Source: Patescibacteria group bacterium
GTDB lineage: Bacteria > Patescibacteriota > WWE3 > JAMCXX01
Assembly: GCA_023474425.1 (NCBI GenBank)
Contig: JAMCXX010000003.1
Location: 21,712 to 85,711, forward strand
Reading direction: 5' to 3'
DNA length: 64,000 nt
Part shown: positions 15,498 to 62,700 of the stretch, piece after piece
Layout: every line of letters starts with the position of its first letter
How positions within the stretch are numbered: the first letter of the stretch is position 1
Program-made: the position numbers and the translations under genes
The notes under the pieces: model-generated
What the model was told of the DNA's origin: nothing
Databases searched by the model: none
What the model saw: only the letters and a program-made list of their open reading frames with translations

Positions 15498-15587
15498 GCC
15501 GATGTGGTGGAACTGGTAGACACGCACGACTCAAAATCGTGTGAGCCTTAAAAGCTCGTGTCGGTTCGACTCCGACCATCGGCACCA
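15498..15587 (+). tRNA. tRNA-Leu (anticodon CAA), class II, CCA encoded
   Basis: Folded by hand. Acceptor GCCGATG/CATCGGC, D stem GTG/CAC, anticodon stem CACGA/TCGTG with loop CTCAAAA. Long variable arm GAGC..GCTC. T arm GTCGG-TTCGACT-CCGAC. Ends ACCA. Confidence 0.9.
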
Positions 15588-15692
15588 CCGAGTCATCTAG
15601 TTAGACTCGATGGCGAGGTGAGCCAAGTCTGACTTGGCCAGGTTTTTATATAAGTAGATGAACGAAAAGTATAGAGAAACCATTTTCAGATC

Positions 15693-15762
15693 GGAATTCG
15701 TCATCCTGGCCGAGTCCAGGATCGATGCTGGAGCCGCCCAGCATGACGACCCCGGGAATTCC
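15693..15762. repeat. three-hairpin palindromic element (CGTCAT...ATGACG type)
   Basis: Outer stem TCGTCATCCTGG / CCAGCATGACGA. Inner hairpins CCTGG..CCAGG and GCTGG..CCAGC. Flanked by GGAATTC / GGGAATTCC. Confidence 0.65.
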
Positions 15763-15830
15763 AATCTGTGTGTGTTATGTGACACTACGTTTACATGTTG
15801 TTTAGTTAAGTGAGACACCTAGAAATCTTT

Positions 15831-15888
15831 GCACCCGTAGCTTAATTGGATAGATCCGGCTCAGCCGGATTCCGGAGTTGATCTTCTT
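15831..15888 (+). other. tRNA-like 5' fragment (acceptor strand plus D-loop) fused to a GC hairpin
   Basis: GCACCCG-TA-GCTT-AATTGGAT resembles tRNA positions 1-21. It is followed by the hairpin ATCCG-GCTCAGC-CGGAT. No canonical D stem, T arm or 3' acceptor strand follows. Confidence 0.3.
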
Positions 15889-15964
15889 GTGCCTGTAGCT
15901 CAGGGGATAGAGCGTGCGCCTCCGGAGCGCAAGGTCGGGAGTTCGAATCTCCCCAGGCATACCA
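15889..15964 (+). tRNA. tRNA-Arg (anticodon CCG), CCA encoded
   Basis: Acceptor GTGCCTG/CAGGCAT (G1-U72). D arm GCTC-AGGGGATA-GAGC. Anticodon stem TGCGC/GCGCA with loop CTCCGGA. T arm GGGAG-TTCGAAT-CTCCC. Ends ACCA. Confidence 0.9.
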
Positions 15965-16025
15965 TAGTCGGAGCGGTTGGGCGCCTGCCTGCCGCAGGCA
16001 GGTTCGAGTCGCCCTGGGCGCACCA
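15965..16025 (+). other. tRNA-like 3' fragment (T arm, acceptor strand, ACCA) with a 19-nt hairpin inside the T arm
   Basis: GGGCG [CCTGCCTGCCGCAGGCAGG] TTCGAGT CGCCC TGGGCGC ACCA. The acceptor strand pairs 6/7 with GCACCCG at 15831. Confidence 0.3.
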
Positions 16026-16350
16026 ATAAGCCCTATAGTTGACAAACTGTTTTTTCTTTTTCCAAAAAATTGTGAGAAGGCACCGTCTTTTGCAGAATAA
16101 GATCCTATTTGTTATGCACATTAAAATATACAACGCTACATAGCGTTATATAATTTGAACTTGGAAATGGCTTAGTTCCGGCATTTTGCATACCTATCCC
16201 GATAATATGACTATTCAAATAAAAGATTATAAATAAACTCCTATTTCTTGCCGGAAAACTTTTTTTACAAAACTTCCAAAAGTTTTTTGGACTATAATGT
16301 GTGCAGGGGGTTGAAATAATTTTAGTTTCCACAAAAGGAGGTGGTAGTTT

Positions 16351-16749
16351 ATGAACGGTTACATCGTAAACATAGAAAAATCTTCCCTGGAAAATAAGTT
16401 CTTCCGAAAGGTTCTTTATACTGCAAAGCACAGCCAACTGGTTTTAATGTCTCTTAAACCCAAAGAAGAAATCGGTGAGGAAATCCACCATCTTGACCAG
16501 TTCATCCGCATAGAGTTCGGAGAAGGTCTTGCAATTTTGGACGGAATAGAACACCAAATATCCGACGGTTCTGCTATTGTAATTCCTGCCGGAACCAGGC
16601 ACAACATTATTAATTCTTCGGTTCAAAAGGACATGAAACTTTATACCGTTTACAGCCCTGCGGAACACCGCGACGGGGTTATTCACAAAACCAGAGCCGA
16701 TGCCCTGGCAGATAAGGACGATGAATTTGACGGAAAAACCACGGAATGA
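16351..16749 (+). CDS. cupin-domain protein
   Basis: GEEIHHLDQFIRIEFGEG...IVIPAGTRHNIIN fits the two cupin motifs. SD AAAGGAGG upstream. Confidence 0.75.
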   Translation: MNGYIVNIEKSSLENKFFRKVLYTAKHSQLVLMSLKPKEEIGEEIHHLDQFIRIEFGEGLAILDGIEHQISDGSAIVIPAGTRHNIINSSVQKDMKLYTVYSPAEHRDGVIHKTRADALADKDDEFDGKTTE

Positions 16750-16770
16750 CATATTTATATTGTTTTAATT

Positions 16771-17334
16771 ATGTCCAACATTCCCGTTAACGATTTACGC
16801 AAAGGCGAAGTTTTTAAAGAAAACGGCCAGCCCTTTGTTGTTGTTAAATACAGCCACGTTAAAATGGGCCGCGGCAATGCCGTTATTAAAATTAAGGCCA
16901 AAAACCTAAAAACGGGTGCCGTTTTGGAAAAGTCATTTCTTTCCGGAAGTTCCGTGGAAGAGGCCGACGTGGAAAAAATCAAAGTGCAGTACCTTTACAA
17001 GAGTGGCGAAACCTACTCTTTTATGGACAGCCAGACCTTTGAAACCATTGAACTTTCGAGAAGCTTTATTGGCGACGATGTTAATTATCTTAAAGAAGGT
17101 GAGCCTTGCCAACTTTTAAAGTTTGAAGGCGGGCCGGTAAGTTTAGAGTTGCCGCTGAGCGTCGTTTTAAAAATTGCGGAAACGGGTTCGGGTTTTAAGG
17201 GAAACTCGGTAACCAATATGATGAAGCCGGCTAAACTGGAAACGGGGTTAGAGGTGCAGGTTCCCAACTTTATTAATGAAGGCGAATCGGTTAAAATAGA
17301 TACACGCACGGGCGAATATGTTGAGAGGGCCTAG
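16771..17334 (+). CDS. efp: elongation factor P
   Basis: LRKGEVFKENGQPFVVVKYSHVKMGRGNAVIKIKAKNLKTG plus OB domains. 187 aa. Confidence 0.95.
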   Translation: MSNIPVNDLRKGEVFKENGQPFVVVKYSHVKMGRGNAVIKIKAKNLKTGAVLEKSFLSGSSVEEADVEKIKVQYLYKSGETYSFMDSQTFETIELSRSFIGDDVNYLKEGEPCQLLKFEGGPVSLELPLSVVLKIAETGSGFKGNSVTNMMKPAKLETGLEVQVPNFINEGESVKIDTRTGEYVERA

Positions 17335-17354
17335 AGCCCCGCGCCCGCTAAACC

Positions 17355-17738
17355 ATGAATGTTGTCTTCGCAACGGCCTCAGCCACACCTTCAGGAATTG
17401 CCGTAGGAAGCATTGTTGCCGATTTTTTTGGCGGCTTGCCTTTTTACCTTTTTAATTTATTTTTCCTTTCCTATCTTGTTTTTTTGTGGGTTTTTCTGGT
17501 GCGCTGGGTGGGGCAAGATGCTTTGAGGCGTGGTATTGAGGGGTCGCGCCGTCAGGCATACATGATTCTTGTTCTCATTTTTAGTTTTCCCGGTCTTTTT
17601 CTCTATCTTCTTTTGCGGCCGCCTCTGACTTTGGATGAGCAAAAGCGGGCGGAAATGGAAGAGGAAGTGATTACTTTGGAATTGGAGAAACTCCGTAGAG
17701 AATCCACATCCCGGACGCCAAGTATAAATTCTAAATAA
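17355..17738 (+). CDS. hypothetical membrane protein
   Basis: 127 aa, 3 TM helices, charged coiled tail. Confidence 0.55.
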   Translation: MNVVFATASATPSGIAVGSIVADFFGGLPFYLFNLFFLSYLVFLWVFLVRWVGQDALRRGIEGSRRQAYMILVLIFSFPGLFLYLLLRPPLTLDEQKRAEMEEEVITLELEKLRRESTSRTPSINSK

Positions 17739-17756
17739 CTCCCTAACATAAGACGT

Positions 17757-17882
17757 AATTTGAAGTTTTAAATTTACAATTTGAATTGAATTTTCAATGA
17801 CTCAATTTAAAATGTTTGAAATATTGAATCATTTGATGTTAATTTCAAATTTAAAAGTTCAAATTGAAAATTAAGTTTGATG
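17757..17882. repeat. AT-rich intergenic block of degenerate TTGA/TCAA period-7 units in both orientations
   Basis: AATTTGA AGTTTTA AATTTAC AATTTGA ATTGAAT TTTCAAT GACTCAA ... AGTTCAA ATTGAAA. Confidence 0.6.
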
Positions 17883-17901
17883 TATCTGCTATCCTTATAA
17901 T

Positions 17902-19173
17902 ATGAAATATATTAGGCAAACTCTTGCCAACGGCGTGCGTTTAATATTTACCCCCATGCCCCAATCCCTCTCGGTGGGGGTTAACGTTTTTGTAGGCACC
18001 GGTTCGCGCAATGAAGCGGCGCAAATTAACGGCATTTCCCATTTTCTGGAGCACTTGGTTTTTAAGGGTACAAAAAAATATGAAAATTCCCGGATTATCT
18101 CGGAATCAATCGAGGGCCTGGGCGGCATGATTAACGCCTATACCAGCGACTCTCTTACCAATTTTCACGCAAGGGTGACACCGCCACATTTTGAGGAAGC
18201 GTTCAGAGTGGTAGCCTCGCTGGTTCTAGAACCTCTCTTAAGACCTAAAGACATTGATGCCGAAAAAGGGGTCATTATTGAAGAAATCAACCGCAAGGAG
18301 GACGACCCGCAGGACAAAGTTTTTGAACATATTGCCCGGCTCACTTTTCCCAATCATCCCTTGGGCCGGCCGACTTTGGGCAGTTCGGAAGTTATTAGGT
18401 CTCTAAGTCAGAAAGACTTTTTGGACTACCGGGCGGAAAACTATGTGAGCCAAAATACGGTGGTAAGCATTGCCGGTAATATTAGCGAGGACAGGGCGGT
18501 AACCATGTTTGAGAATAAATTCTCTTCCTTGACTAAGAATAGTTCTTCGCCGTTGAATAAATTTTTTGCAGTTCAGCTAGAGCCGCAGGTTTTTTTGGAG
18601 AAAAAAGAAACAGAGCAGGCCCATTTTTGCCTAAGCCTTCGGGGGTTAAGTCTTTTTGATGAGCGGCGCTATGCGCTGGCGGTCCTTAACAGCATCTTGG
18701 GCGCGGGCATGAGCAGCCGGCTTTTTTTGAATATCCGCGAAAAAGGTTTGGCCTACTCGGTGGGAAGCCTTCCGGATCTTCTAGTTGATACCGGTGCTCT
18801 CTACGTTTTTGCCGGCTTTAGTGTTAGCCGGATTAATGAGGCTTTGGCGGCGGTTATGGGAGAGCTTAAAAGGCTTAAGGAAGAGCAGGTTGGGGAAGAG
18901 GAGCTTAAAAAGGCTTTGGAAAAAATTAAAGGTCCTCTTTATTTTGAACTTGAGGACCCAGCGGCGGTGGGGGACTGGTATGGCAAACAGGAAGTAATGA
19001 AGGGAGAAATTGAAACCGAGGAAGAATATCTAAAATCGTTGACGGCCGTAACACCAAAGGACGTTCGCGGATTGGCCAATGATTTGCTTGATAAGCGGAA
19101 TCTTAACCTGGCCATTATTGGGCCTTATAAAGAGGAGAAAAAGGCGGAGCTTCTTAAACTGCTTAAATTCTGA
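17902..19173 (+). CDS. M16-family (insulinase/pitrilysin-like) zinc peptidase
   Basis: HxxEH motif GISHFLEHLVFKGT and downstream E in NAYTS region. 423 aa two-domain size. Confidence 0.9.
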   Translation: MKYIRQTLANGVRLIFTPMPQSLSVGVNVFVGTGSRNEAAQINGISHFLEHLVFKGTKKYENSRIISESIEGLGGMINAYTSDSLTNFHARVTPPHFEEAFRVVASLVLEPLLRPKDIDAEKGVIIEEINRKEDDPQDKVFEHIARLTFPNHPLGRPTLGSSEVIRSLSQKDFLDYRAENYVSQNTVVSIAGNISEDRAVTMFENKFSSLTKNSSSPLNKFFAVQLEPQVFLEKKETEQAHFCLSLRGLSLFDERRYALAVLNSILGAGMSSRLFLNIREKGLAYSVGSLPDLLVDTGALYVFAGFSVSRINEALAAVMGELKRLKEEQVGEEELKKALEKIKGPLYFELEDPAAVGDWYGKQEVMKGEIETEEEYLKSLTAVTPKDVRGLANDLLDKRNLNLAIIGPYKEEKKAELLKLLKF

Positions 19174-27438: not shown

Positions 27439-27550
27439 TTGGTTTTCCTCACCGGATTTGACAGCAACATTGTCTTGTGGTATAAAGTACACAGTCTCTC
27501 TCCTTTCTTCGCCCCTCGGCCAAAATTAGCCGGGGGGTTTTTGGTTGCAG

Positions 27551-27559
27551 TGGTATAAT
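27551..27559 (+). promoter_or_regulatory. extended -10 element TGGTATAAT upstream of the ATPase gene
   Basis: TGnTATAAT 22 nt upstream of the ATG at 27581, with AGAGGGAGAG as the likely SD. Confidence 0.4.
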
Positions 27560-27580
27560 ACTAAGAGAGGGAGAGCTTTT

Positions 27581-30130
27581 ATGATAGTTGCCCTTATTTT
27601 AGTTGTTCTTGTTGTCTCCGTTTGGCTGGCCGTCCGCGGTTATAAAAAGCCGTCGGGTTTCGGCAGTTCTTTTGAAAACATCGTTCTGCGTATTCGGGTG
27701 CCTAAAGAAAATGAAAAAGACGCCCTGGCCGCCGAGCAGATGTTTTCTTCGTTGCACGGACTTTTGCGGCTCACGCCGGAGTTCCAGGAGCACATCGGTT
27801 TTGAAATTACGGCGAGCAGCGCCGGCATTAACTTTTTTGCCGTCTGTCCCAAAGGGTTAAAAGATTTTGTGGAGAGCCAGGTTTATGCCCAGTACCCGAA
27901 CGCCGAGCTTACCGAAGTGCCTGACTACACAGTGGCAGGCGAGGATGCCGAGGCCGGGGTTTTCGCCCACAGCCTTTTGGTCCTTTCCAAGCCGTCGTTC
28001 TTTCCCATACGCACCTTCAAGGAATTTGAGGTTGACCCGCTCTCGGGCATTACCGGCGCCATTTCTAAGCTCCACGAAAAAGAACAGGTTTGGCTTCAGC
28101 TTTTAATCCGTCCCGTACCAGATGTCTGGCAGCAGGAAGGGCACGATTATGTGAATTTAGTGCGCAGCGGCGCAAGGGCGGTTAACATTGGCTTAAGCGA
28201 TTTAGGCGGCACCGTTTCCAAAGAGATTAAATCTCTGCCTTACCATTTTTTTAAGGCTATTTTAAGTCCGGGCACGCCGCACCCTCTGCCAGACAAAGCC
28301 GCACCGGTTCGTACCTCCTCCGGTGATGAGCTAGCAATAAAATCAATTGATTTAAAACTTTCTAAGTTGGGATTTGAAACTAATTTGCGGGTTTTAGTTC
28401 GGGGGGAGAGCCGTGAGCAGGCCGAGAACCGCTTGCGCGGCGTTTTGGCATCATTCAAACAATTTTCCACGGCCAATCTTAACAGTTTTATGCCGCTAGC
28501 AGCTGGGGAGGGGCCCAATGTTTTATCCGACTATTCGCGCCGGCTCTTTGACAATGTTAATTCGTACGTTTTGACCACCGAAGAGCTGGCCTCGGTTTTT
28601 CACCTGCCGTCGGTTTCGGTGGAAACGCCGGCCATTGCCTGGACGCCGGCAAAAAGGGCCGAGCCGCCTTCAAATCTGCCCACTCAAAATTGTACTTATT
28701 TGGGCAAGACCACTTTTCGCGAATCAATGATTAAATTCGGAATTAAAAGGGAAGATCGCACGCGCCATTTTTACGTGGTAGGCAAAACCGGTTCGGGCAA
28801 GACCACCGTTTTTAAAAATATGATTATTCAGGATATGCGAAACGGGGAGGGCTTATGCGTTTTGGACCCGCATGGGGATTTGATTGAGGAAATGCTCAAC
28901 TTTGTGCCGGAGCAAAGGCTTTCCGACGTGGTCATTCTTGACCCTTCCGATGTGGACCACCCGACAAGCCTTAACATGTTGGAAATCTCCGAACCGATGC
29001 AAAAGAATCTTATGGCCTCGGGCCTGGTGGACGCCTTTAAAAAACACTTTATTGATTCCTGGGGGCCGCGTCTGGAATATATTTTAAATAACTCTATTTT
29101 GACTTTGCTTGAGGTTCCGCGGACCACCCTCTTGGGCATTACCCGCCTTTTAACCGACGATAATTACCAGAAATATATTGTTTATAAAGTTAAAGACCCG
29201 GTAATTAAGGCTTTTTGGGAGAAGGAATTCCGCGAAATGAAGGGCAATCAAAAACTGATTACCGAAGCCATTGCCCCCATTCAGAACAAGGTCGGCCGGT
29301 TTTTATCGTCCTCAACCATCCGCAACATTGTTGGGCAGGCTAAGTCGACCATTGATCTGGAGGAAATCATGAACAGCGGAAAAATTCTATTTGTGAATCT
29401 GGCCAAGGGCAGAATTGGCGAGGATAACAGCAATCTTTTGGGTTCTCTGATTATTTCCCGGCTTCAATTTACGGCCATGCAGAGGGTCAAAGTACCCGAA
29501 GAAAAGCGCCGCGATTTTTATGTCTATGCCGACGAGTTCCAAAATTTTGCCTCCGGTTCATTTGCCAGTATTCTTTCCGAGGCGCGTAAATACAAACTTT
29601 GTCTTAATTTAACCCACCAGTACACGGCCCAACTGCCCAAACCGATGCTCGAAGCAATTTTTGGCAACGTGGGGACCATGATGGCTTTCGCCCTGGGCGC
29701 GCCCGACGCCAAGGCTCTGGCCCTGGAATTTGCTCCGTTTACGGAAAACGATTTAATTTCCCTGGAACGCCACCACGTTTATGTCAAACTTATGATTGAC
29801 AGCATGACCAGCGCGCCGTTTTCGGCGGTGACTCTGCCCGTACCGTCGGAGCTTTCCACCGGCAACCGCGATAAGGTGGTTGAACTTTCCCGCTCAAAGT
29901 ACGGCGTTGACCGAATGGTTGTGGAAGGGAAAATTAATCAGTGGGTTGAGCGGCAGTTCACGCTAGGACTGGCCAAAGCCGAAGAGATGAGAGAGCCGGG
30001 GAGTCCTTCGGTAGAAATTCCGGAAGATCCCGCGGGTAGTCACTCCACGGACATACCGGAAGGAGGAAATTCGCAAAACAGTCAGAGTCGTCTGGAGAGC
30101 GAAGAAAAAGGAGGTGCTTCTTATGGATAA
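27581..30130 (+). CDS. membrane-anchored VirD4/TraD-like (type IV coupling protein family) P-loop ATPase
   Basis: N-terminal TM helix. Walker A VVGKTGSGKTT. DPHGDL. Walker B-like FYVYADEFQNF. RKYKLCLNLTHQYTAQL. Start moved to the ATG at 27581. Confidence 0.7.
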   Translation: MIVALILVVLVVSVWLAVRGYKKPSGFGSSFENIVLRIRVPKENEKDALAAEQMFSSLHGLLRLTPEFQEHIGFEITASSAGINFFAVCPKGLKDFVESQVYAQYPNAELTEVPDYTVAGEDAEAGVFAHSLLVLSKPSFFPIRTFKEFEVDPLSGITGAISKLHEKEQVWLQLLIRPVPDVWQQEGHDYVNLVRSGARAVNIGLSDLGGTVSKEIKSLPYHFFKAILSPGTPHPLPDKAAPVRTSSGDELAIKSIDLKLSKLGFETNLRVLVRGESREQAENRLRGVLASFKQFSTANLNSFMPLAAGEGPNVLSDYSRRLFDNVNSYVLTTEELASVFHLPSVSVETPAIAWTPAKRAEPPSNLPTQNCTYLGKTTFRESMIKFGIKREDRTRHFYVVGKTGSGKTTVFKNMIIQDMRNGEGLCVLDPHGDLIEEMLNFVPEQRLSDVVILDPSDVDHPTSLNMLEISEPMQKNLMASGLVDAFKKHFIDSWGPRLEYILNNSILTLLEVPRTTLLGITRLLTDDNYQKYIVYKVKDPVIKAFWEKEFREMKGNQKLITEAIAPIQNKVGRFLSSSTIRNIVGQAKSTIDLEEIMNSGKILFVNLAKGRIGEDNSNLLGSLIISRLQFTAMQRVKVPEEKRRDFYVYADEFQNFASGSFASILSEARKYKLCLNLTHQYTAQLPKPMLEAIFGNVGTMMAFALGAPDAKALALEFAPFTENDLISLERHHVYVKLMIDSMTSAPFSAVTLPVPSELSTGNRDKVVELSRSKYGVDRMVVEGKINQWVERQFTLGLAKAEEMREPGSPSVEIPEDPAGSHSTDIPEGGNSQNSQSRLESEEKGGASYG

Positions 30131-33177: not shown

Positions 33178-34143
33178 ATGAACCATCGGCGCCGTAAGTC
33201 TTTTTCAAAAGCCTTTGTTATCTTTTTTATTTTATTGATTTCCTTTCTTATCGTTTGGTCGCGCCAAAAGAGGTTTAATGCAACGAATACTGTTGTGAAT
33301 TCGTCGCCAAAGAACGAATCAGTAGCGGTGCCGCAATCATTAATGTCCTTTCCTTCAAAACCACCTTCGTCCCCGCCGGAGGGCCAATCGTTAGACGAAG
33401 TTATGAATCAGGCTTTAGAGGGCGCCGACGGCACCTATGGTCTTGCTGTTGAAAACCTAAAAACCGGTGAGACTTTCTACCGCAACGAGCATACCGCCTT
33501 TGAGGTCGGTAGCTTGTACAAGCTTTGGGTTATGGCTGTGGTTTATCAAAAGATTGACTCAGGAATTTTAAGCGAAAGCCAGATTTTAAGCCAGGATATC
33601 GCCACTCTCAACCAGGAGTTTTGGATCGATCCCGGATTTGCCGAACAAACCGAGGGCAGTATTAGCGTTTCCGTTGATGATGCGCTAACTCAAATGATTA
33701 CCGTTTCCGCTAACTATCCGGCTTTGCTTTTGTCCGAAAAAATAGGCCTTTCTTCGGTGGCGCAATTTCTTAACGACTACGGCTTTAGGGAGTCGGCCGT
33801 GGGAATTACCGGAGGGCCGCCAACCACGACGGCCGCAGACATCGCCTTATTTTTTAAAAAGTTGTACCGAGGGGAGCTTTCGAGCGAAAGTTCTGGTAGC
33901 AAAATGATTGCCCTTCTTAAAAAAAAAGAACTCAACGACGGCCTGCCAAAGTATCTGCCGGATCCCTCTCAGGTTGCCAATAAAACCGGCGATATAGACC
34001 TATTTATGAATGACGGCGGTATTGTGTACGCGCCCAAGGGCGACTACATTATTGTTATTTTATCACAGACTGATTATCCGACATTGGCCGAAGAAAGAAT
34101 TGCCCAAATTTCCAAAAGTGTTTACGAATATTTTACCGATTAA
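33178..34143 (+). CDS. class A beta-lactamase-like serine hydrolase
   Basis: TM anchor. S-x-x-K (GSLYKLW). SAN in place of SDN. KTG (NKTGD). Confidence 0.7.
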   Translation: MNHRRRKSFSKAFVIFFILLISFLIVWSRQKRFNATNTVVNSSPKNESVAVPQSLMSFPSKPPSSPPEGQSLDEVMNQALEGADGTYGLAVENLKTGETFYRNEHTAFEVGSLYKLWVMAVVYQKIDSGILSESQILSQDIATLNQEFWIDPGFAEQTEGSISVSVDDALTQMITVSANYPALLLSEKIGLSSVAQFLNDYGFRESAVGITGGPPTTTAADIALFFKKLYRGELSSESSGSKMIALLKKKELNDGLPKYLPDPSQVANKTGDIDLFMNDGGIVYAPKGDYIIVILSQTDYPTLAEERIAQISKSVYEYFTD

Positions 34144-34660
34144 TTTTTTGATGCTGGAACAGGGAAGAGGGGAGTATGATTAACAAAAAAAAGTTCGATA
34201 CCCCATAACTAATAATATCACCCTGTAGTATAAATTAGATAATTTATCATTTAAACTTTTTGATTGATAACACCGATGTCAAAACTATAAGATCTAATAT
34301 AATACAAAAAGTTAACTATTCATTGATATACCGGGTTTATTAATCTGATTGTGTTTTTGTGGATAACCTTCCAATTGGCGGGTTTTTGGCGTAACAGCGG
34401 CCTTTCCTCGTCTTAAAGATTTAGACCACAAAAAAGGGGCTTCCAGGATGCTTCAGAAATCGTTTTTATGGTTTGGGTGACCGTTTGCCCGTCTAGAGAT
34501 TTTACAATTAGGCCCGATTTATATTTTGGGCGGCGGGCGGGAAAGTTTTTTACTTAAGTGTATTAAAGCTTAACGTAAAGGGTTTTCTACCCGACTGAAG
34601 ATCCTTTTAAAAACTTGGATTTTCAAATAAAGGTCCGGAGTGGCTAAAATTCCCGCAGGC

Positions 34661-34690
34661 TTGACTTCCAGCTTAATAACTTCGTATAAT
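34661..34690 (+). promoter_or_regulatory. sigma70-like promoter TTGACT-18 nt-TATAAT upstream of the recombinase gene
   Basis: TTGACT 34661-34666 and TATAAT 34685-34690. The gene starts at 34739. Confidence 0.5.
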
Positions 34691-34709
34691 CTACATTGTG
34701 CGAAGTATG
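34676..34709. other. lox/dif-like candidate recombination site (13-8-13 layout)
   Basis: ATAACTTCGTATA-ATCTACAT-TGTGCGAAGTATG. Inverted core ACTTCG/CGAAGT. Lies 30 nt upstream of the tyrosine recombinase start. Confidence 0.35.
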
Positions 34710-34738
34710 GTAAAATGGGACTGTAACTACTCCCCGCT

Positions 34739-35656
34739 ATGTTTAAGGACTTAATTTTAAAATATTTGGAATATTTGGAATTGGAAAAAAACAAATCGGT
34801 TAAGACGATTGCTAACTACTCTTTTTACTTAAACCGTTTCTTAAATTTCGGACAATTCCAAAAAATTGAAGATGTGACTCCCCTTTCCATTCGCCGGTTT
34901 AAACTTTATTTAAACCGCTACCTAACTCGCGACAAACGCCCCCTAAAAAAGGTAACGATTAATTATCACCTAATTGCTATCCGCAACTTTCTTAAGTACT
35001 GCTTGAGAGTTGAGGACCTACCGGCAATGGCTTCGGATAAAGTGGAACTTTTGGACAAGGACGAGAGGGCAATAAGAACCCTTAACGAAGCCGATCTGGA
35101 ACGGCTTTTAGCTTCGCCGAGTCTTACGTCCAAATTTGGACGGCGGGACCGGGCTATTCTTGAACTTTTATTTTCTTCGGGTCTTAGGGTTTCGGAGTTA
35201 ACCAGCCTTAATCGTGACCAGATTAATCTTAAGACCAGGGAATTTTCAATCCGGGGTAAAGGGGGTTATATTCGCGTCGCTTTTATTTCGGAGAAAGCTG
35301 CCTGGGCCTTAAAGATGTATTTGGCCAAGCGCGACGACGCTTTTCGTCCCTTGTTTATTCGCTACGGCGGAAAAACGGCGGATCCGAGCAGTCTTGGCGA
35401 GGATCTACGCTTGAGTGATAGAAGCGTCGAAAATATAGTTAAAAAGTACTCTACAGTTGCCGGGATTATGAGCAACCCCACACCCCACACCCTCCGCCAT
35501 TCTTTCGCCACCGATTTACTTTCGGCGGGGGCTGATTTGCGTTCGGTACAGGAGCTTTTGGGGCATAAGAACGTGGCCACGACGCAAATTTATACCCATG
35601 TTACCAACCCCCAACTTAAAGCCGTTCACAAGAAGTTTCATCGGGGTAATCGTTAG
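34739..35656 (+). CDS. tyrosine recombinase, XerC/XerD family
   Basis: N-terminal SAM-like core-binding domain (YLEYLELEKNKSVKTIANY). Catalytic RxxxxxxG..LRVSEL, HTLRHSFAT and LLGHKNVATTQIYTHV. Confidence 0.9.
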   Translation: MFKDLILKYLEYLELEKNKSVKTIANYSFYLNRFLNFGQFQKIEDVTPLSIRRFKLYLNRYLTRDKRPLKKVTINYHLIAIRNFLKYCLRVEDLPAMASDKVELLDKDERAIRTLNEADLERLLASPSLTSKFGRRDRAILELLFSSGLRVSELTSLNRDQINLKTREFSIRGKGGYIRVAFISEKAAWALKMYLAKRDDAFRPLFIRYGGKTADPSSLGEDLRLSDRSVENIVKKYSTVAGIMSNPTPHTLRHSFATDLLSAGADLRSVQELLGHKNVATTQIYTHVTNPQLKAVHKKFHRGNR

Positions 35657-59737: not shown

Positions 59738-62700
59738 ATGATGATTTATAAAAGGTTCCTAACTAAAATATTTTTAAGGGTGGGTTTGGTTGTTCTGTTT
59801 TTATTATTGGTTAGATCATCCGGCGGTTCTGAAACTCCGGTCTTTGCCGCTTCTGCCGGGGGTATCACTAATCTTCAAAGTGCTTGGGGCTTATGTGACG
59901 GTGGTGGGGCTTACAGTCTTGGTCGCTGTAAGCAAGGCAGCATTAATTACACTATGTATGCTTATGCCTGTGGGGCGGACAACGGAAACGACCCCACCCA
60001 TTGTAATGACAACTGGCAGTTTAATGGCACCCCGACCTGGAACGCCATGCTAAGCAACGGTTACTATGAAATCGGCAAGTATGTCTGGCCGCTGCAGACT
60101 TCCGGAGTTACCCAGAATGATTGGGTTTGTAAAGTTCAGATTGATGTTTTTAATGGTGGTCAGCTGCTTGATTATGTAACTTGGCGGGACCCAGAAAGGT
60201 GTGGTTCTCCCCCGCCGCCCCAAGCCCCCTTTTATACCGCGGTATCCCCGGTTGGCTACGCTTCAGTGTCAAGCTTGTACCCAACATTTACTTGGCAAAC
60301 AAATGCGGACACCTCGGGTATTTCCTACAACAACATCTGTCTTTATGACTACGGTACTTATTCAAGCGGTCCCTGTGTCTTTGGCCCGTCAACTTCGGCC
60401 CGGTCGTTTACCTCTACCGTCGCTATGCCTGCCAGCAATACCATGGCGTGGTTAATTTATGGATGTAAGCCGGGTTGTGCCGGTGGTGGTTACGGTACTG
60501 GTTGGAATTGGTTTGTAACTCCGGCTGTTCCTGGCACCCTCTCTATTTCCACCACTCCTGTTTCCGGAGGAATCTATGTTGACGGGTCGTATGTAGCCAG
60601 CGGCAGTTGGAGCGGCAGCTACTATACCAGCAGTCACACGGTGAGCTTCGGGGCGGTGGGGGGCTACAACACCCCCGGAGCACAGTCGGTCACTGTTAAC
60701 AACGGCCAGACAACTTCCGTTACCGGAACTTACACCGTCCAAAATGGAACTTTAACCATTAATACCACTCCTGTTTCCGGGGCCATATATGTCAACGGCG
60801 GTTACTGGGGTACCGGCTCGGCCAGCAGCACTCTGTCTCCAGGAACTTACACGGTAAGCTTCGGGGCGGTAACGAACTACAATACTCCCGCCAACCAAAG
60901 TGCCACCGTCTATGCAAACCAGACAACTTCCGTTACCGGAACTTACACCGCCTCCAGTTATACCGTCAGCACCTCGGCCGGTTCCGGGGGATCAATTAGC
61001 CCCACTTCGAGCACAGTCAGTTCCGGCGCCACAGCAAGTTTTACGGTAACACCCAACACCGGTTATCATATTGTTTCTGTCACGGGTTGCAGCGGCTCTC
61101 TTTCCGGCAATACCTACACCACCGCAGCCATCTACTCTAACTGTACGGTAGCGGCCACCTTCGCCATTAACACCTATACCATTACCGCCTCGTCCGGCTC
61201 CGGAGGAACAATCAGTCCTTCCGGAACGGTTAGTGTTAATTATGGCGGCAGTCGAACCTTTACCATTACACCCAGCTCAGGATATCACATTAGCAATGTG
61301 GTAGTTGATGGGTCTTCCGCAGGCGCTGTGGGCAGTTATACTTTCTCCAGTGTCACCGCCAGCCACACCATTAGCGCCGCCTTCTTTCTCTATGTGGGCA
61401 CCCTCAACGGTTCGGTTTTTAACGATACCAACGGCAACGGAATCCAGGACGGAGGGGAGTCGGGACTGGCCGGAGTTCCGGTTTACGCTACGGCTAACGG
61501 ATCCAGCTATATTGGCCCGCAAAATACAAATGCCGGCGGCAACGTTAGTTTTAGTAATCTTGACCCGGGGAACTACCGGCTTGAGATAGACCTCTCCTCT
61601 TTCGTTCTTAAGGTTGGCAGTCAGTGGAGCTTGAATAGTTCCGCCTACGGTTATGTTTTAAGCAACGGTCGATATACAACCCAGCAAGGGGCCAACCAGT
61701 TTCCCGTTAACGTAGCTTCGGGCAGTACGATTAATGTTCAACTTGGGACTAAAAACCTGCCCACCAACAGCGTGACGGTTAATATTTACTATGACGCCAA
61801 CGGAGACAGCCAATTGAATAACGGTGAAGGTTTACTTAACGCCTCGGTCAAGCTTACCTGCAGTCCCTCCGGAGTCAACTGCCCCGTCTCCACAACCGTA
61901 TCAAACGGCACAACATCCTACACTCTGCCCCAGGGCACCAACTACACCATTGGTTACGATACCGGCGGCAGCGCTCCCTACAGCACGGTTAACCGGGCAG
62001 ATGTGCGTCCGGCTAGTAATCCCAACCCATTCACCGGCACCGCCTGCGCTGGCCCTTCTTGCTCCGTTAATCTTTCGGGAACGGACATGATTATTGACTT
62101 TCTGGTTACCAACAACTCCGCTCCCTGGATTCAATCTCAAGGCGGCGATGTTTACAGCAACTGTGACACCTCTCACTGCTCGGCCACCAATCCCGGTATT
62201 CTTATTCACGTTAACTCTAATGCCTCTAGCCCCTATTTTATTGCCGGAGGGGGAAATCAAGGCGGCATTGCCCAGGCTTTAACTCCGATTGCCTGTCCCA
62301 CGGGTATGGGAGCCTGTTCCCAAGCCGGTTACCTTTTGCCAAACTATGCCTCGGCTGTTCCCTGGCCGGCCGTAGTTGATAACCTCGCCTCGGGCGGCTG
62401 CAACGCCAACGATTCCGTCTGTTACTTAAGTGGTAGTCTGACCGTTAATAATTCTAACAAGCAGGATTTTCGCAATGGAGTTGGACACCAGTACTTTCAG
62501 AAGGTGGTGGTTGTTAACGGCGATATTACTATTGATGCTTCCCAGGTAGCCAATAACAACAATCCCAACAATCCGGATATTAATGCTTTCTTGGTGGCCC
62601 GCGGTACTTTGACGGTTGGCGGTGCGGCCGGAACCAATGCTCTTTATGTCTCGGGCGGGTTATATGCAAAGAACGGTTTGAGCTTCAACTACTCTCTGAC

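Follow-up and report, generated by a model that had tools for sequence, protein, structure and literature searches.

The 64,000-nucleotide stretch of DNA analyzed here (the window), from contig JAMCXX010000003.1 of an uncultivated Patescibacteria (candidate phyla radiation [CPR]) bacterium, contains a 28-bp element at positions 34679 to 34706 that is very likely the chromosomal dif site of this organism, with the gene 32 nt downstream encoding the recombinase predicted to act there. The original prediction had proposed a dif/lox-class recombination site cognate to the adjacent Xer gene. A linked module of this kind is supported by the conservation of the site beside the gene, by its recovery in searches that used the site alone, and by GC skew reversals at sites of the same family. 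The system is of a known kind and appears to be undescribed for this group, as our literature search, within the searchable library, found no described Xer/dif system for CPR, Patescibacteria, or Saccharibacteria.

On the plus strand, the core site reads ACTTCGTATAA-TCTACA-TTGTGCGAAGT, with an 11-bp left arm (34679 to 34689), a 6-bp central region (34690 to 34695), and an 11-bp right arm (34696 to 34706). On the minus strand, which is the canonical orientation of the family, it reads ACTTCGCACAA-TGTAGA-TTATACGAAGT. This arrangement conforms to the general form of Xer/dif sites, namely, about 28 bp with two imperfectly inverted 11-bp arms around a center of 6 to 8 bp. The site had originally been drawn as a 13-8-13 element, the plus-strand 34-mer ATAACTTCGTATA-ATCTACAT-TGTGCGAAGTATG at 34676 to 34709. 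We found this sequence exactly as written, with the recombinase ATG (34739) 30 nt past its final base. Its 13-nt arms form only an imperfect inverted repeat, as claimed, matching each other at 8 of 13 positions, and the 11-nt core arms match at 9 of 11. The 13-8-13 architecture itself is replaced by the 28-bp, 11-6-11 layout that emerges from the comparative data, in which the outer three bases on each side lie outside the conserved element and are almost without information. Base frequencies from 15 sites of a recombinase-first survey and 110 sites of a site-first survey, among the matches listed, restrict the information content to the 28 core positions.

The core scores 39.5 bits against the weight matrix, compared to 6.7 bits for the runner-up position in the 64-kb window, where the site is present as a single copy. 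The 34-mer and its left-arm 13-mer, the latter singled out earlier as identical to an arm of phage P1 loxP, each occur exactly once in the window. Neither is expected by chance, as had been argued for the 13-mer, and none of 100 shuffles produced the 34-mer. The exact identity of the 13-mer to loxP does not carry the weight placed on it. When up to three mismatches are allowed, the 13-mer occurs 12 times in the window against 13.9 expected, showing no excess over chance.

The adjacent gene (34739 to 35656, plus strand) reads away from the site and encodes a 305-amino-acid Xer-type tyrosine recombinase with a Pfam Phage_integrase domain and an N-terminal SAM-like domain. Its catalytic residues R150, K174, H250, R253, H276, and Y285 (RKHRHY) are intact and invariant in 35 homologs, and they agree with the R-K-H-R-H/W-Y signature of the Xer subfamily, to which the protein belongs. 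NCBIfam models for XerC, XerD, and XerA match with E values of 7.7e-67, 1.5e-66, and 7.9e-62, respectively, yet every curated cutoff is missed. The XerC model gives 225.7 bits against a cutoff of 335.15, and the XerD model gives 224.7 against 329.6. The archaeal XerA model NF040815 (recomb_XerA_Arch) is a near miss at 209.2 against 220 bits and comes nearest of all models to passing. The XerS model scores 112 against 267 bits and covers only the C-terminal half, and the integron-integrase models TIGR02249 (114.2 against 265 bits) and NF011946 (67.6 against 435 bits) match C-terminal segments only. The best relatives among solved structures are Pyrococcus abyssi XerA (4a8e; 2.9e-34) and Escherichia coli XerD (1a0p; 1.2e-33). 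The XerH structure 5jjv is a distant match limited to the C-terminal domain (2.9e-9), and Cre gives no match among solved structures at an E value of 0.001 or below. Some relatives with 55% identity bear the NCBI product name of the XerA model, "site-specific tyrosine recombinase/integron integrase." The protein is 100% identical to an NCBI entry from a metagenome-assembled genome of a "Patescibacteria group bacterium," encoded on a 96-kb contig. No second Xer-like gene was found in the 64-kb window by tblastn.

We compared the window with loci from independent ENA, JGI, and Logan assemblies that encode recombinases with 74 to 78% identity. In five such loci, a nearly invariant block, ACTTCG(T/C)(A/T)TAA-TCTACA-TTGT(G/A)CGAAGT, is conserved upstream of the gene, and the intergenic DNA around it is unalignable, as is the outer ATA of the supposed loxP arm, which has diverged. 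Likewise, blastn found no similarity in the relatives for the intergenic DNA upstream of the site in the window. What is kept next to the recombinase is thus the 28-bp core inside the 34-mer and not its outer flanks. Within the core, the A at 34686 is a T in all close relatives. The surrounding gene order is also shared, running from yebC through DUF5656, the gap holding the site, xer, and a trpR-like gene to gyrA and gyrB. The window genome alone carries a beta-lactamase-family gene (33178 to 34143; Pfam Beta-lactamase2, 1.1e-38) between DUF5656 and the site. At this position the relatives have 590 to 720 nt without a called gene, and tblastn detected no trace of the beta-lactamase gene in them.

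To survey the wider distribution of the site, we scanned the recombinase profile over one genome per species, which yielded 80 loci, mostly from Patescibacteria. A consensus-free search for 11-6-11 palindromes upstream of these 80 Xer loci was too noisy for picking sites, and an iterated weight matrix was used in its place. The resulting scores are bimodal, with 16 loci at 25 bits or more (including the window and the close relatives fetched earlier) and the rest at 15 bits or less. In most positive loci, the site lies 60 to 150 nt upstream of xer. In other positive loci, it is found about 1 kb upstream (L023, L046, and L007), 2.3 kb downstream of the gene start (L021), or 9.7 kb away (L061).

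The converse search ignored the protein and used only the pattern ACTTCGCAYAANNNNNNTTWWNCGAAGT, whose 18 fixed and three two-fold positions would match at about 2e-12 per position per strand under equal base frequencies. It returned at least 120 metagenome contigs and 12 viral-labeled contigs. Among the matches listed, 42 distinct metagenome sites have at least 1.3 kb on both sides, and at 32 of these an Xer homolog starts within 700 nt and reads away from the site, with a median spacer of 64 nt. One further site has an Xer homolog elsewhere in the locus, and the remaining nine have none. The orientation of the site relative to xer is clade specific and flips between clades: the arrangement in the window, with the GCAyAA arm beside the gene, is common to the 77%-identical L200 and a clade at 44 to 47% identity, and most other lineages show the opposite arrangement.

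The replication terminus offers a separate line of evidence. Among the matches listed, 16 loci selected by their site have at least 3 kb on each side. GC skew is positive to the left and negative to the right of the site in 13 of them, which is the polarity of a terminus, and none shows the reverse. In 10 of the 16, the cumulative skew peaks no more than 600 nt from the site; with uniform placement of the peak, about 12% would be expected. Peaks about 500 nt or less from the site are also present in the recombinase-first set (L064, L058, L066, and L041). Xer loci that lack the site behave differently, with 22 of 29 holding one skew sign and a mean left-right difference of 0.006, compared to 0.084 at site loci. 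Two sites without an adjacent xer gene (L094 and L204) also sit at skew reversals, indicating that the site tracks the terminus rather than the gene. The xer gene is at the terminus only where it is linked to the site, and this is the behavior expected of dif and not of a mere operator.

Several observations weigh against the assignment of this site as dif. A check of whether the locus sits at the cumulative skew maximum had been proposed earlier; in the window, the cumulative G-C maximum lies at 60,204, 25 kb from the site at 34.7 kb. An independent assembly (L222), found via a response regulator and identical over a 3,080-nt overlap, extended the window to 72,084 nt, and the cumulative curve falls until about 68 kb. 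Skew is +0.052 over 1 to 34.7 kb, +0.023 over 34.7 to 60.2 kb, and -0.046 beyond, with no reversal at the site. Regression on gene strand and replication gives two nearly equal fits, either a step at 31 to 32 kb (+0.063 to about 0) or a sign change at about 48 kb. The terminus-type turnover is thus displaced rightward from the site by 13 to 25 kb. A reversal close to the site is seen in just one of the nearest relatives, L219 (+0.035 to -0.051), with L220 and L221 being ambiguous. Linkage is not universal either, as about 65 of the 80 related Xer loci have no recognizable site within 10 kb.

Patescibacteria typically have genomes of about 1 Mb. Kono et al. placed dif at a distance from the skew shift point of 1.4% of genome length (1 sigma) and at most 3% (PMC3025954). 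The offset of 13 to 25 kb is compatible with dif, if inexact, and fits this published spread (14 to 30 kb) only given the assumed genome size of about 1 Mb. Variable linkage between site and gene is also known for archaeal XerA, which forms a module with its site in some lineages and lies apart from it in others (PMC5357621). A switch of gene strand at the site was set aside as a terminus marker because gene orientation in the window is mixed.

By analogy with the established mechanisms of Xer, XerA, and Cre, one recombinase monomer would bind each 11-bp arm, and two occupied sites of a chromosome dimer would synapse. The catalytic tyrosines would then cut at both edges of the 6-bp central region, and two sequential pairs of strand exchanges via a Holliday junction would resolve the dimer to monomers ahead of division. 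Both arms are probably bound by one and the same protein, as in a homomeric single-recombinase system, because the arms are nearly symmetric and co-vary and a single Xer gene is present in 64 kb. Co-variation is seen at the outer arm positions between lineages, as in AGTTCG...CGAACT (L064) and ATGTCG...CGACAT (L046), and arm position 3 is a G on both arms in four of five cases (Fisher P = 0.023). A XerC/XerD pair, with two paralogs passing their models and distinct arms, was not found within the 64-kb window.

Overall, the module combines a protein most similar to XerA with a site most similar to canonical bacterial dif, in a layout that most resembles XerS/difSL. As proposed here, the XerA/dif system of Archaea (P. 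abyssi, Thermoplasma, and Sulfolobus) relies on one Xer-type recombinase, and its site is likewise 28 bp long, with arms of 11 bp around a center of 6 bp; it also provides the best structure match, the nearest NCBIfam model, and the same variable linkage of gene and site (PMC5357621). It differs in that the host here is a bacterium, the protein falls just under the XerA cutoff, and the site matches bacterial dif at 19 to 20 of 28 positions, compared to 14 of 28 for Pyrococcus sites against the bacterial consensus (PMC2958812). XerS/difSL of streptococci and lactococci also pairs a single recombinase with a site directly upstream, in its case as one module at the terminus. However, difSL is 31 bp long with an 11-bp center and unequal arms, in contrast to the 28-bp, 11-6-11 site described here, and the protein encoded in the window is about 50 residues shorter than XerS and not of that type, such that only the linked-module layout is shared. 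The XerC/XerD-dif system has the same site length and layout, similar inner-arm and center motifs (CAyAA-TGTAnA-TTAT...), and recombinases of the same fold family, and sites of the present family also lie at the GC skew shift point (compare PMC3025954). In contrast to that system, both equivalog cutoffs are missed here, no paralog pair is seen in the window, the arms are nearly symmetric and co-vary, and gene and site are linked. A single recombinase with a site near its gene is also a feature of XerH/difH in Helicobacter and Campylobacter (PMC5357621), but XerH is a distant match and the difH arms, AGTTATGAAAA and AAAAGTTTGA, are unrelated in sequence.

The likeness to loxP, which had been put at 26 of 34 positions (left arm, 13 of 13; spacer, 5 of 8; right arm, 8 of 13), is correct when checked against the published loxP sequence. 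Its significance is another matter, since the shared 13-mer includes three bases (ATA) of unconserved flank and relatives have a T in place of the A at 34686. The core matches the 28-bp core of loxP (ACTTCGTATAG-CATACA-TTATACGAAGT) at 23 of 28 positions, more than either one matches E. coli dif, and it matches the dif sites of E. coli and Bacillus subtilis (reference sequences from PMC3025954) at 19 to 20 of 28. Because loxP itself matches B. subtilis dif at 19 of 28 positions, the resemblance reads as one dif-class site resembling another, a family likeness that appears to be sharpened by a few coincident bases. Cre/loxP also uses one recombinase on two nearly symmetric arms, as suggested for the present system, and shares the left 13-mer. 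It differs in having perfect 13-bp arms and an 8-bp spacer, compared to 11 conserved bp per arm and arms differing at two positions here, and the recombinase in the window is not Cre-like.

The proximity of the site to the start of xer raises the possibility that it is an operator or promoter element controlling this gene only and not a substrate for recombination. A near-consensus promoter overlapping the site had been noted earlier, and the sigma-70-like match TTGACT-18-TATAAT (34661 to 34690, plus strand) is real at 11 of 12 positions, and its -10 hexamer falls across the left arm and the central region. The match is peculiar to this genome and not conserved, as the -35 region is unrelated in relatives and TATAAT becomes TTTAAT. 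The extended -10-like element TGGTAAAAT (34708 to 34716, plus strand), which begins 2 nt past the site, appears to be the better candidate promoter; it is kept in the closest relatives as TGGTAAAAT or TGGTAGAAT (L004/L200, L005, and L006) and is absent in L001. RNA polymerase bound to it would cover the site. An operator is thus suggested by the overlapping promoter-like match and the abutting TGGTAAAAT, and by a perfect TATAAT at the site edge on the gene side only (8 versus 0 on the gene-distal side, of 48). A comparable idea has also been published as speculation on autoregulation of difSL/xerS (PMC1914069). We rejected the argument that the more general TAnnnT hexamer at the site edge shows an overlapping promoter, because the gene-distal edge is just as likely to have such a -10-like flank (36 versus 37 of 48), and A/T-rich flanks are largely a symmetric property of the site. 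An operator serving xer alone is also at odds with family sites 1 to 10 kb from the gene (L023, L046, L007, L021, and L061), with sites at skew reversals that have no nearby xer (L094 and L204), and with an orientation relative to the gene that flips among clades. Moreover, an 11-6-11 layout with dif-like inner arms is characteristic of crossover sites. We therefore consider an exclusively regulatory element highly improbable. Autoregulation of xer through site occupancy is plausible, and regulation may be an added role of the site, but it cannot be the sole one.

A second leader feature lies between the site and the gene, the C-rich motif CTACTCCCC (34727 to 34735, plus strand), 4 nt ahead of the xer ATG. 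Related motifs, CCACTCCCC and CCACTTCTCC, occupy the equivalent position in many distant loci (e.g., L092, L110, L122, L162, L168, L180, and L190). In either class of site orientation, the motif precedes the xer start codon by 4 to 15 nt, at the place expected of a Shine-Dalgarno sequence, and it resembles an anti-Shine-Dalgarno sequence rather than a Shine-Dalgarno sequence. At the same position, 4 of 53 genes in the window have a C-rich stretch and 9 of 53 have a Shine-Dalgarno-like sequence. A reading of the G-rich complement of this motif as similar to FtsK-orienting polar sequences (KOPS) was dropped, as the upstream GGAGTGG (34637 to 34643) is unconserved in relatives.

The gene and the site might instead be the integrase and attachment site of a mobile element, or an integron-like platform, which we judge no more probable than a purely regulatory role. 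Integration modules usually have their site beside the gene (PMC1914069), the flanks are variable and include the beta-lactamase-like gene of the window genome, and the locus is somewhat AT rich. In addition, the site recurs on viral-labeled contigs, including one (L212) with an array of sites. Against a mobile element stand the housekeeping synteny yebC-DUF5656-site-xer-trpR-like-gyrA-gyrB across relatives and the lack of a second site in 64 kb that would mark the other end. The integron-integrase model also scores only 114 against its 265-bit cutoff, and family sites are located at skew reversals.

Even less probable is a phase variation switch, in which the site would be one end of an invertible or excisable segment driven by the adjacent recombinase. 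Such a switch is brought to mind by an inverted 12-of-13 copy of the loxP-like left arm, ATAACTTCGTCTA, 1.26 kb away on the minus strand (33392 to 33404), and by a few loci with two inverted sites about 230 nt apart (L132, L185, and L161). We regard this copy as probably due to chance, because it falls within the beta-lactamase-like open reading frame (ORF), has neither center nor right arm, and belongs to an ORF absent from relatives. As coding DNA that does not score as a site, it makes a poor partner end, and close relatives that lack the gene bearing it still keep the site. Finally, a loxP cloning vector, a phage P1 contaminant, or a chance match can be excluded despite the 13-mer identical to a loxP arm, given the match of only 26 of 34 to loxP, a recombinase that is not Cre-like, the native DNA syntenic with related metagenome-assembled genomes (MAGs) from independent samples, the recurrence of lineage-specific variants in independent ENA, JGI, and Logan assemblies, and the independent assembly identical over 3,080 nt to the right end of the window, about 26 kb from the site.

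With the site taken as the dif of a Patescibacteria bacterium, a 28-bp consensus becomes available for a very large and mostly uncultivated group: AnnTCGyAyAA-N6-TTwnnmGAnnT, most often ACTTCGCAyAA-N6-TTwwnCGAAGT. It could serve as a terminus marker in MAGs, for checks of closure and misassembly, for orienting replichores, and for anchoring estimates of replication rate. The linked single-recombinase module, documented earlier in Streptococcaceae, epsilonproteobacteria, some archaea, and Legionellales, would be widespread in Patescibacteria too, and the site family flags candidate mobile elements that possibly exploit Xer in this group. An orthogonal recombination tool could also be developed from such a compact recombinase and its loxP-like 28-bp target. 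These findings leave current understanding intact.

A broader combination of these readings is speculative and, taken as a whole, rather unlikely. Here the dif core and the xer promoter would form a self-regulating, relocatable unit, mobile DNA would use the same site family, and cross-reactivity with Cre would be conceivable in light of the 23-of-28 identity to the loxP core. If so, recombinase occupancy of dif would set xer transcription, and an element inserting at dif would sever xer from its promoter. Between lineages, the whole unit could also move or flip, given that its orientation is clade specific. A viral, tRNA-linked array of three to four direct sites would then suggest that Xer drives the capture of cassettes in CPR bacteria or in their phages.

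That array is found on the viral-labeled contig L212 (IMGVR_UViG_3300033388_001990; 1779 to 2830). A tRNA-Gln gene (1779 to 1850) is followed 16 nt on by a dif-like site at 1867, with a degenerate copy near 2040 and further sites at 2558 and 2799. The sites are mostly direct with small ORFs between them, and an HNH endonuclease gene lies just downstream. The arrangement is suggestive of a dif-like site that has received tandem insertions or cassettes. Among the matches listed, an adjacent Xer gene is present at none of the seven viral-labeled sites (L207 to L218) with at least 1.3 kb on both sides, compared to 32 of 42 metagenome sites. The viral-labeled sites could serve for the attachment of elements relying on the Xer of their host, or they could belong to host fragments mislabeled as viral. 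Inverted pairs of dif-like sites about 210 to 240 nt apart, a strong one of about 32 bits and a weaker one of about 23 bits, occur at L132 (3670 to 3925), L185 (1920 to 2183), and L161 (1532 to 1771) and may represent short segments capable of inversion or what is left of insertions.

Some loci of the recombinase-first survey merit separate mention. The Doudnabacteria contig L069 (CAWINB010000001.1; 699,532 bp) has xer at 50.3% of its length and a skew reversal across the gene (+0.062 to -0.061), but site scores do not exceed 7.2 bits; the dif of this lineage has probably diverged and is missed by the matrix. MAGs titled Gammaproteobacteria or Pseudomonadales (L007, L021, L036, L046, and L049) carry Patescibacteria-like Xer genes with 46 to 54% identity, and three of them (L007, L021, and L046) hold the site; the taxonomy of these records looks wrong.

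The regions flanking xer/dif on either side vary among close relatives. An 861-amino-acid ATPase with HerA (DUF87) and TrwB/VirD4 coupling-protein domains is encoded 4.5 kb upstream of the site (27545 to 30130) and is syntenic in close relatives. We considered this HerA/TrwB-type ATPase as a translocase partner and rejected it, as the linkage is confined to the clade of the window (seen at none of nine distant loci with the site and at 1 of 32 loci from the pattern scan, among the matches listed). Besides the AT-rich site locus, the window has a low-GC patch (0.41) at 16000 to 18000, which adjoins tRNA-Leu and tRNA-Arg genes (15498 to 15964) and codes for ordinary housekeeping proteins, namely, a cupin protein, EF-P, and an M16 peptidase.

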